DNA of 10,774 nt, from NCBI GenBank assembly GCA_050293845.1, contig JBNKNM010000195.1:1-10774 (forward strand). Direction: 5' to 3'. This document shows, piece after piece, positions 7,443 to 10,774 of this stretch. The notes under the pieces were generated by a model. It was not told the origin of the DNA and searched no databases. It saw only the letters and a list, made by a program, of their open reading frames with translations. Source of the stretch: Pseudobacteriovorax sp. GTDB lineage: Bacteria > Bdellovibrionota_B > Oligoflexia > Oligoflexales > Oligoflexaceae. The number at the start of each line of letters is the position of its first letter. Position 1 is the first letter of the stretch. The position numbers and the translations under genes were made by a program.

Positions 7443-7914
7443 GAAGAGAAGAAAGTGCTAGGTTTTGATTTACGGTCGGTTGATTTTGGGATCAATATAC
7501 TCTTCGGAGGCACAAGGGACAGAATTTAATAAATCGGATTATTCTAATAAATTCATGTGGATAAATATGGTAATTATTTTGAAAACATATAATTATTATA
7601 ACATGCTTAATATACGAGATATTTTTTAAATTTTAAAATTATACCTACGATATTTTGAAACGAATTAGGTTACCAAATCGGAAAAGCCAGCTCAACGAAA
7701 TGTAAGTTACCGACAAGGCCTAGGAATCTACAAAATGGTGGGCATGCACACTAGAAACACTATGTCCCAAGGCTTTTAGAATCACCCCCCCTTATTCCTC
7801 ATGGATAAATCAGCAATTTTACAACTTTTTCGGTAATTATCCTAGCTTGCCGCCAGAATGTTTTTTGTTACTCTTGGCGAACTTATCACTCCATAAATAC
7901 TCGAGGAATTAAAT

Positions 7915-9240
7915 ATGTTACATCAACTAATTTATGGGACGGCTTTGTTTGCTTCCCTCACTGCGTTTGGGCAAAAAGGACCGGCGGTACCAAGTCTGGC
8001 CATGACGACCATCATACAGGAAAACACTGCTGGCTTCTGTAGCGTAAACGGCAGTGTGGATAACGATAGAGCGGGTTTCACTGGCGATGGATTTGCCAAT
8101 ACGATAAATGCCAACGGCAATGGTGTTAACTGGCAAATCGAGGTCAGTCAGGCGGGAACATATAGCTTACAATGGCGCTATGCCAATGGCAGTGGTAGTG
8201 GCAGTAGTCGTCCTGGTGACGTGATGATTGACGGTGAAACCCAGTTTTATGGTGTAGCCTTTCCCCCAACGGGTGCCTGGACAAACTGGGCCGAGAGCGG
8301 GACGGTGGAATTGTGGCTGGATCAGGGTAGCCACACGATTCGCCTGCAAGCTATTACCGCCGAGGGGTTGGGAAATATCGACTATTTGAGTATCACTGGA
8401 AACAGCAGTGTCAGTGGAGGGACTTGCGAAACTTCAAATCCTGGTGATGGGTATCCCCGAGGTAACCCACCCGTTCCCAGTGCCGGTTGTGGCTCCCCCC
8501 CCGGTTTATGGAGCGGTACCCACAGAATGTCGAGCGCGGGTCTCAATCGAGAGTACATTGTCTCTGTTCCAGAAGGCTATAACGCAAACAAGCCCTACCG
8601 ACTGATTTTTGGGATGCACTGGTTAGGTGGAAGCGCCGAAGCCGTGGCTGATTGGTCAGGATATTATGGACTCGACGCGCGCGACACGGAGGAAACCGCT
8701 ATATTCGTTGCACCACAGGGATACACAGATAACTGGCCTTGGCGAGGAAATGACAACCGGGACCATATCTTCTTTGAAGAGCTGTACGCGCACCTCGCAT
8801 CTAATTTATGCGTCGATGTATCAAGAGTCTTCTCCCTTGGGTTCAGCTTCGGCGCAATGTACACCAACGCCCTATCGCAAACCCATCAGGATATCCTGCG
8901 AGGTGTCGTGGTGTATGCTACCGCCGACTACAACATTTACTTCCCGGCGAACACGGGCAAGCCCCTTGCTTACATGGGGGTCCATGGCCTGAACGACGGG
9001 ACCTGTCCCATCAGTTCGGGGCGGCGGTCTAGAGATAGGTTCGTGGAGAACAATCGATGTGTGGCACCTAGTAGCGTACCTGAAGCTCACCGCGGAAGCG
9101 GCCATGTCACCTTCGATTTCGACTGCCCGGATAATTACCCCGTGCGCTGGTCTACATTCGATGGAGGACACACATATCCGCCAAACAATTCCGGTGAATG
9201 GGCGCAGGATGAGACCTGGGAATTCATCTCACAGTTCTAA
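7915..9240 (+). CDS. Secreted carbohydrate esterase (CE1, feruloyl/acetyl-xylan esterase-like) with an N-terminal CBM35-type module
   Basis: Signal peptide; IQENTAGFCSVNG...GFTGDGFANT...WRYANG...TGAWTNW...NIDYL typical of CBM35/CBM6; PSAGCG start of the esterase domain; GFSFG nucleophile elbow, HGLND (Asp) and FDGGH (His). SD GAGGA upstream. Confidence 0.88.
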   Translation: MLHQLIYGTALFASLTAFGQKGPAVPSLAMTTIIQENTAGFCSVNGSVDNDRAGFTGDGFANTINANGNGVNWQIEVSQAGTYSLQWRYANGSGSGSSRPGDVMIDGETQFYGVAFPPTGAWTNWAESGTVELWLDQGSHTIRLQAITAEGLGNIDYLSITGNSSVSGGTCETSNPGDGYPRGNPPVPSAGCGSPPGLWSGTHRMSSAGLNREYIVSVPEGYNANKPYRLIFGMHWLGGSAEAVADWSGYYGLDARDTEETAIFVAPQGYTDNWPWRGNDNRDHIFFEELYAHLASNLCVDVSRVFSLGFSFGAMYTNALSQTHQDILRGVVVYATADYNIYFPANTGKPLAYMGVHGLNDGTCPISSGRRSRDRFVENNRCVAPSSVPEAHRGSGHVTFDFDCPDNYPVRWSTFDGGHTYPPNNSGEWAQDETWEFISQF

Positions 9241-9686: not shown

Positions 9687-10229
9687 TCATGGAACCTCGG
9701 TTTTTGGAGAATGTCGATGTTCTTTAGGATGAACTAGGTATTTGCTCAAAGTTCTTAAAAATGCTCGAATCTTTTCTTGTAAACAATCATCGGATAAGGT
9801 TTTGAGCCAATCCAGTGATTCATGAGATTTATTCATCTGTGCAACAAAATATTTTAGGGCTATGCGATCTTCTGCTTTTATGGGTAATTTGAAGGCTTGC
9901 AACAGTACGAGAAGTAGTTCGTGGGTCTGGTATATCTTAAAAAATAATGATAAAAGCGCATCGGTAGTTAAGAAAGACGAACCGACTTCACGGTGGTAAT
10001 TTGTTAATCGCTGTCCTGCACCAAGGCAGTCGTAGTGGATACAACCATTAAAACCTAAGCTATGACGTTCATTATATATGGCACACTTACCTGAGGGCAA
10101 TAGGTTGGGGCAAGGTAAGCCTGTTTTCTTATCTATGGCAAACATTTTTCCTTTATTAAAGTGGAAAGCAATACAACACCAAGATAAGCATTGGGTACAA
10201 TCCGATTTTAATTCGAATTCTAGTTTCAT
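9687..10229 (-). CDS. Cys-rich protein (CxxCxxxCC cluster) similar to the N-terminal domain of YisX-type pentapeptide-repeat proteins, lacking the repeats
   Basis: DCTQCLSWCCIAF...FAIDK..G.PCPNL....CAIY.....GFNGCIHYDCLGAGQ matches the YisX-N pattern. SD AAGGAG upstream of the ATG. Confidence 0.75.
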   Translation of the reverse strand: MKLEFELKSDCTQCLSWCCIAFHFNKGKMFAIDKKTGLPCPNLLPSGKCAIYNERHSLGFNGCIHYDCLGAGQRLTNYHREVGSSFLTTDALLSLFFKIYQTHELLLVLLQAFKLPIKAEDRIALKYFVAQMNKSHESLDWLKTLSDDCLQEKIRAFLRTLSKYLVHPKEHRHSPKTEVP

Positions 10230-10699
10230 TTAAAACTCCTTGAACAAAAATTTCCATGGTTTCTCGGGAGTTTTTTACTGGGTAAAAATGGGGAACAAGG
10301 CTATTTAGAGGCTGAGGAACACCTATAGATGAAGGCGCAGTGAAACAATATTCACCGAGATTAATCCTAGGTCCCAAATGTTCACCTAGGCGAAAACTGC
10401 AAATCTTATCCGTAGAGCAATTACGTAACGATTTCAGTATTAATAGCAAGTCTTTTTGGCGTAAAGAGGAATTTTCCTGATAATGCATAAATAATAGGTG
10501 TAATCAACAATCTTGTAAAGCTTTTTAATAGGATAAGATGTCACCTGTCATAGATTATAGACCTAATAAGCTTTACTACTAAACTTTTTTAATACATTCT
10601 TTTCTAGGTTAAGCTACACATTTTCTACGGATTGTGAAACTTACCTAGTCGATAGTTTTTTCTTAGCCTTTGCTCAGTGCTGGAATGAAAGCTGTTTGT

Positions 10700-10774
10700 G
10701 TCAATTACCCCCACCTAAAGGAGGGGGCTTGTGAGGTGACTCGCAAGGGAGACTAGTTGACCAGACCACTAGCA
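10700..10774 (+). ncRNA. 5' end of an IscB-associated omega-RNA (HEARO-like) scaffold / IS200-IS605 left end; truncated by the window end
   Basis: GTCAATTA (10700-10707) pairs with TAGTTGAC (10754-10761). Enclosed are the hairpin CCCCC-A-CC-TAAA-GG-A-GGGGG (10708-10727) and the hairpin CTTGTGAG-GTGA-CTCGCAAG with a GNRA loop (10728-10747), followed by CAGAC. This matches the GTCAAC-w-ACCCC..CTAAAG..GGGGCTT...GTTGACCAG start of HEARO/omega-RNAs. Confidence 0.8.

Follow-up and report, generated by a model that had tools for sequence, protein, structure and literature searches.

The 5' end of an IscB omega-RNA at a contig end of a Pseudobacteriovorax genome bin, and the multi-copy element to which it very probably belongs

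Known IscB elements and the present locus

HEARO RNAs, the omega-RNAs of IscB, are a curated family in Rfam; how they work is known, and so are IscB elements present in multiple copies. Two described systems provide the comparison for the locus treated here. The first, ISGst5 of Geobacillus stearothermophilus, encodes GstIscB and is IS605-like and non-autonomous. According to the available portion of Meers et al. (bioRxiv 10.1101/2023.03.14.532601), the HEARO region lies at the right end (RE) of the transposon, and the target-adjacent motif (TAM) abuts the left end. The wild-type GstIscB TAM is TTCAT, 5' of the left end, and the same motif is read by TnpA and by IscB. The criterion for an omega-RNA in that text is a position on the same strand within 500 bp upstream of the iscB ORF. 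The second system is OgeuIscB, with the guide at the 5' end of its omega-RNA and the TAM at the 3' side. The accessible part of Kato et al. (PMC9640706) gives a guide of about 17 nt, of which 16 nt are sufficient, and reports that mismatches at TAM-proximal positions 1–14 abolish cleavage.

The window, the whole stretch of 10,774 nucleotides analysed here, is contig C195 of a 741-contig genome bin (G000) and ends where that contig ends. Its last 75 nt, 10700–10774, are confirmed as the 5' terminal part of an omega-RNA of IscB (family HEARO in Rfam), as an earlier note made without tools or database searches had proposed; 75 nt are thus enough for an omega-RNA to be recognized by reading the sequence. 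The favoured interpretation, to which we assign a probability of about 0.9, is that these 75 nt open the omega-RNA of an IscB-encoding, non-autonomous element of the IS200/IS605 family, about 1.63 kb long. The likeness to ISGst5, as far as the available text describes it, covers the non-autonomous IS605-like nature, a guide derived from the flank and a TTCAT TAM at the left end. TTCAT is the reverse complement of ATGAA, the motif found at the far end of the present element, so geometry and TAM are the same as in the GstIscB element. The host differs, about 26 copies are present here, and none of the ten tnpA loci examined in the bin has matching ends. The earlier note had placed the omega-RNA at the left end of the element; this has to be turned round, as the HEARO region marks the right end in the convention of Meers et al., in the portion available.

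The protein is compared through P0002, a 442-aa sequence returned by a search with an IscB fragment on contig C321 of the bin; it may stem from a close relative and not from this genome. By inspection it follows the plan of OgeuIscB (PLMP, RuvC-I, bridge helix, HNH, RuvC-III and a C-terminal TAM-reading part), and the guide and TAM occupy the same sides as in the OgeuIscB–omega-RNA complex. The differences are its length of 442 residues and the TAM, which is of the NNRR/NWRRNA type in the accessible part of PMC9640706 and ATGAA here. With a curated RNA family, a well-studied nuclease, the standard arrangement and a TAM already described for another IscB, the locus is an ordinary, well-preserved example.

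The omega-RNA scaffold at the contig end

The features at the end of the window are as follows.

10453–10699, no strand assigned: flank with an element-free paralogue (C158:7290–7547, minus strand, 85% identical)
10680–10699, plus strand: predicted guide segment, host DNA just outside the element (sharp repeat boundary between 10699 and 10700)
10700, plus strand: the transposon begins here, at the end that Meers et al. (available portion) call RE
10700–10774, plus strand: scaffold, first 75 nt of the omega-RNA at its 5' end (cmscan; 75/75 identical to C10:338–264)
10700–10761, plus strand: P1, outer closing helix around P2 and P3, 10700–10707 with 10754–10761 (HEARO alignment, covariation, MFE fold)
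10709–10727, plus strand: P2 hairpin with C-rich arm, UAAA loop and G-rich arm, 10709–10715 with 10720–10727 (alignment, MFE fold)
10728–10747, plus strand: P3 hairpin of 8 bp with one U-G wobble, 10728–10735 with 10740–10747 (alignment, MFE fold)
10764–10774, plus strand: start of a long-range helix and of the next scaffold stem, with partners beyond the contig end (HEARO structure line)

As read from the sequence, the scaffold spans from GTCAATTACC at 10700 to TAGTTGACCAG at 10754–10764. A cmscan search with E-value reporting matches 10700–10774 to positions 1–65 of the 211 positions of HEARO (RF02033) with 36.1 bits (E 5.9e-6), and flags the match as truncated on the 3' side by the contig end. 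At the Rfam gathering score the window has no HEARO match (36.1 against 83 bits), because only 65 of the 211 model positions fall inside the contig. P1–P3 resemble the family in sequence and structure over these positions. Unlike the consensus, the window has a P3 that is 4 bp longer on each side through insertions, and this copy is cut short by the assembly.

The nested three-stem fold at 10700–10764 is confirmed as real and more than chance, including the G-U wobbles and the GNRA tetraloop seen in the unaided reading. P1 contains one U-G wobble in both the Rfam alignment and the MFE fold, and the P3 tetraloop is GUGA (10736–10739). The scaffold piece has an MFE of -29.2 kcal/mol, against -17.8 ± 2.8 for 200 shuffled sequences (z -4.08), none of which folds as stably. 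For covariation, the window was aligned with two diverged copies from the same genome and nine metagenome relatives, 12 sequences in all. In the three-stem domain 95.1% of cells pair, compared with 28–51% in slid controls. Both sides have changed in 7 of the 22 pairs, five of these in P3, so that compensatory changes are found in 5 of the 8 P3 pairs; the covariation score was reached by none of 500 shuffles.

The scaffold continues in an identical copy elsewhere in the bin. The match on C10 runs on past its 75 identical nucleotides, and C10:338–101 is a full HEARO covering all 211 model positions with 119.7 bits (cut-off 83). Two diverged copies score 99.1 and 98.4 bits. These data bear on the alternative that 10700–10774 marks the edge of an IS200/IS605 element of the TnpA/TnpB type, or of some other repeat, and resembles HEARO by chance. 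The genome does carry 23 matches to the Y1 transposase (Y1_Tnp) as well as other repeat families. Against this stand the identical copy on C10, whose full HEARO passes the cut-off and leads into iscB codons, the covariation behind the stems, and the control genomes, which gave no HEARO match. Ends like these are also absent from the ten tnpA loci examined, where only matches of 9–12 nt, at chance level, were found. A TnpA/TnpB-only IS end, which the earlier note had named as one outcome that would overturn its reading, is thus contradicted, and a chance likeness is scarcely credible.

The repeated element and its iscB gene

The 75-nt omega-RNA start recurs throughout the bin. Twenty-four places match 67–75 nt of 10700–10774 with at least 98.6% identity, and 16 of them agree at all 75 positions (75/75). 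For 23 of these places the distance to a contig end is at most 78 nt. The likeness among copies begins exactly at the G of GTCAA (10700), and upstream of this break the flanks all differ among the 34 copies and fragments listed. A recurrent 75-nt sequence with differing flanks marks the edge of a high-copy element that short-read assembly did not cross; the contig stops 75 nt into the element because there are many near-identical copies, put at roughly 26. The IscB element accounts in this way for the stop of C195 and for about 50 other contig ends of the bin. Contigs from public sequencing runs show the same edge. In run X1 a 131-nt unitig that extends 84 nt past the window end has a depth of 284.8, against 7.68 in the flank, and neither depth nor depth ratio is a copy number. 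Seven public-run contigs reach 10699 with different preceding sequence, and a 1664-nt contig of run X3 ends with 10700–10774 without a single difference. Among the public-run contigs listed, the bins 10524–10683 are without cover, which proves nothing.

In the identical copy on C10 the iscB gene follows the RNA on the same strand. Its ATG is found 306 nt downstream of where the scaffold starts; 10 codons can be read before the contig end, and these encode the first 10 residues of P0002. P0002 scores 342.7 bits on the NCBIfam model NF040563 guided_IscB (cut-off 175) and carries the Pfam domains RRXRR and HNH. The PLMP motif, the RuvC-I aspartate, an arginine-rich bridge segment, the HNH motif and the H..D motif of RuvC-III can be picked out by eye. 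At the other terminus, iscB C-terminal codons stand at 27 or more contig ends of the bin, and at 17 contig ends the reading is 100% identical to the C-terminal 21–34 residues of P0002, which therefore has the same termini as the element ends of this genome. Between them, residues 297–434 match C462 at 99.3% and residues 12–193 match C321 at 90%, where the 173-aa IscB fragment scores 202.7 bits on guided_IscB. Residues 194–296, the HNH region, have no real match in the bin, and no intact iscB is present there; the unmatched HNH part indicates that the interior of the collapsed repeat is missing from the bin. The earlier proposal of an iscB or isrB gene thus holds for iscB: judged from P0002 and its HNH domain, the protein of the element is an IscB and not an IsrB.

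C10 and P0002 together give an element length of 1634 nt, made up of 306 nt of omega-RNA and spacer followed by the 442-codon iscB; the X3 contig of 1664 nt fits this expectation. The agreement of the window's 75 nt with the majority form points to a young copy, and for the same reason it is likely that the window copy carries a full iscB. Alternatively, this copy may have been orphaned or have suffered an internal deletion, with no working iscB behind the omega-RNA, which could at best use IscB supplied in trans by other copies. Derivatives of this kind do exist in the genome: omega-RNA-only mini-elements without iscB on C387 and C67, a mini-element of about 210 nt at C99:17452–17665, two copies with an internally deleted 193-aa ORF that is near-neutral (dN/dS 0.82), and the iscB of C321, which stops after 173 readable codons. 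They have all diverged, however, either to 70–88% identity or in their 5' ends. The 75 nt of the window, in contrast, match the majority form at 100%, and the X1 unitig (284.8 against 7.68, depth not being a copy number) indicates that most copies are alike for at least 84 nt past the window end. An orphan is accordingly the unlikely alternative here, and a full-length IscB element the preferred one.

The closest sequences found are IscBs from metagenomes, namely P0003 and P0004 (74% over the fragment) and the proteins of loci L085–L092 and L100 (71–79%). Of ten metagenome loci tested, whose IscB is 56–79% identical, nine carry a full HEARO that precedes the ATG by about 300 nt, and the tenth contig starts inside the RNA. 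These relatives share with the present element the scaffold start about 300 nt before the ATG and the ending in ...TTTG followed by ATGAA, the latter motif lying at the stop codon in 11 of 13 readable loci (9 of 10 distinct ones). They differ in being single loci on metagenome contigs. Among named genomes, with the records of the window genome itself left out, no relative exceeds 55% over near-full length; a 67-residue N-terminal fragment (L075) reaches 72%.

Insertion sites, and the predicted guide and TAM

The copy-specific flank, with its break between 10699 and 10700, identifies the guide, which on sequence grounds would be the 16–20 nt ending at 10699. The earlier note had given it as 10680–10699. 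Its boundary is exact, all listed flanks differing up to that point, and its length is not necessarily 20 nt: by analogy with OgeuIscB (available part of the source), the working guide is probably 16–17 nt, 10683/10684–10699. The far ends of the element were located by a 19-nt anchor. All 27 that are readable show the same 45 nt or so ending in ...TTTG (one in ...TTTA), then ATGAA, the reverse complement of the GstIscB TAM as given in the available text, and then diverge. With a fixed motif, ATGAA, at one end and no target duplication, this insertion feature of IS200/IS605 elements is present. The 26 guide-side flanks contain neither a conserved motif nor a target duplication; Shine-Dalgarno-like motifs occur in 5 of 26, against a background of 7.6% (p 0.04), which is too weak to use. 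The genome offers a natural set of about 26 guide/flank pairs with a fixed TAM for one 442-residue IscB.

A stand-in for the empty site is provided by a paralogue of the flank. The 247-nt non-coding stretch 10453–10699 occurs twice in the genome, and in its second copy, on the minus strand of C158, the guide homologue is followed immediately by ATGAA, with the element absent. The element therefore sits between guide and ATGAA. The comparison with empty alleles in related genomes, recommended earlier, yielded no orthologous site: intergenic DNA does not align with that of G001, the only same-genus genome, whose coding DNA is 68–73% identical to that of the window genome, and none of the other 39 relatives matches. 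The far-end partner contig of the window copy was not found, as the DNA downstream of the C158 site matches no far-end contig and resembles only C78, at 66%.

By analogy with the described systems, the element would be maintained as follows. (i) Transcription from the flank would yield an RNA that begins with 16–20 nt of host sequence, up to 10699, as its guide. (ii) Scaffold-bound IscB would cut DNA that reads as the guide sequence followed by ATGAA. (iii) Guide plus ATGAA would be the joint left after excision by TnpA. (iv) Repair of the cut from the sister chromosome copy would put the element back. The nearest upstream gene in the window (9687–10229) lies on the strand opposite to the omega-RNA, and a sigma-70 scan of the upstream plus strand found only a weak promoter-like site with 9 of 12 matches, which is not evidence. 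A 183-nt contig from an RNA library, X8, is identical over 10700–10774, but it could stem from residual DNA or from a copy in a different organism and so is no proof of transcription. Elsewhere in the genome a single near-cognate site for the window guide occurs, on C158, with 14 of 16 positions matching beside ATGAA and mismatches at positions 10–11. TAM-proximal mismatches at these positions abolish cleavage in OgeuIscB, as far as the accessible text of Kato et al. goes, so that trans-targeting is unlikely and the C158 site is probably safe from the window guide. For none of the other 21 guides tested does the genome contain a site beside ATGAA with at most three mismatches.

Hairpins near both ends can be seen by eye on one strand: P2 at 10709–10727, and a similar hairpin about 20 nt from the far end. 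P2 probably also serves as the predicted subterminal hairpin for the TnpA transposase. At C19:9329–9374, between two genes, lies a 46-nt remnant with a single hairpin, in which the scaffold start is fused to the far-end hairpin; both element ends are joined at the P2 hairpin.

Many insertions lie on the start codons of host genes. On the coding strand ATGAA is a start codon followed by the beginning of a Lys or Asn codon. At 14 of 33 far-end junctions an open frame of at least 80 codons runs from the ATG of ATGAA, compared with 16.7% of the 23,617 genomic ATGAA sites (binomial 4.5e-4); example junctions are C46:105, C52:71, C192:72 and C19:9376. Twelve of the 14 junction ORFs have Pfam domains. 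In seven the profile alignment begins no later than residue 11, which identifies the ATG as the start codon of the host gene itself. Because the last two bases of the element are TG, the iscB stop codon (TGA) takes its final base from the A of the TAM and overlaps the host ATG; 7 nt before that ATG, within the element end, stands a GGAG. It is put forward tentatively, as somewhat less than an even chance, that this IscB element family is a 'start-codon docker' that slips between the ribosome-binding site and the start codon of host genes. A docked element would borrow the host promoter and 5' UTR, the latter becoming the guide, to express omega-RNA and iscB, and would hand translation back to the host gene by coupling, so that insertions at gene starts would be tolerable. 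The pattern could be read in two ways: as a by-product of the motif together with selection against insertions inside genes, or as a way to insert at gene starts without silencing the genes. If functional, it adds to how such elements coexist with their hosts. In the available literature on TTCAT and IscB, 'start codon' occurs once in Meers et al., in another context, which is no proof that the pattern is absent from print.

Copies assembled through inside contigs are all degenerate (C14, C275, C99, C19, C387, C67 and C221). This is expected from assembly bias, yet it shows that decay is common. C14:43954–44837 and C275:455–1333, both on the minus strand, are diverged copies (87–88%). Their HEARO still scores above the cut-off, and each has an open 193-aa ORF that has lost the bridge helix, RuvC-II and HNH, so that RuvC-I runs directly into the RuvC-III motif. 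The idea of a domesticated mini-IscB was rejected on the dN/dS ratio over 184 codons, given above, and the two ORFs look like the products of decay. The iscB fragment at C321:4853–5371 (minus strand, 173 codons) departs from P0002 after residue ~180, and the DNA behind it is unrelated; the ends of C10 and C321 fit together head to tail, save for 1 nt missing at the joint. A repeat of about 77 nt, with at least 12 diverged copies (C462 on both sides of an N run, C8:1855–1931, C454, C209, C384, C71 and others), abuts a truncated iscB in C462 just upstream of the RuvC-III motif.

In G001 an IscB match is lacking, and the scaffold finds only omega-RNA-like bits of about 31–35 nt. On its contig C125 a scaffold-start match (10827–10861, 89% over 35 nt) and a far-end match (12189–12263, 75% over about 75 nt) lie 1.4 kb apart on one strand; the pair may be a strongly decayed element. 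The mini-elements of the window genome at C387:~1150–1621 and C67:~7590–8052, both on the minus strand, have HEARO scores of 77.5 and 37 bits. Each runs from HEARO through a short spacer to the far-end hairpin and ATGAA, and each precedes the start of a signal-peptide gene. The deletion layout is common to both, which suggests that it was the mini form that moved. The shorter mini-element on C99 stands before a gene that starts MKIGISTGGGDCPGLN.
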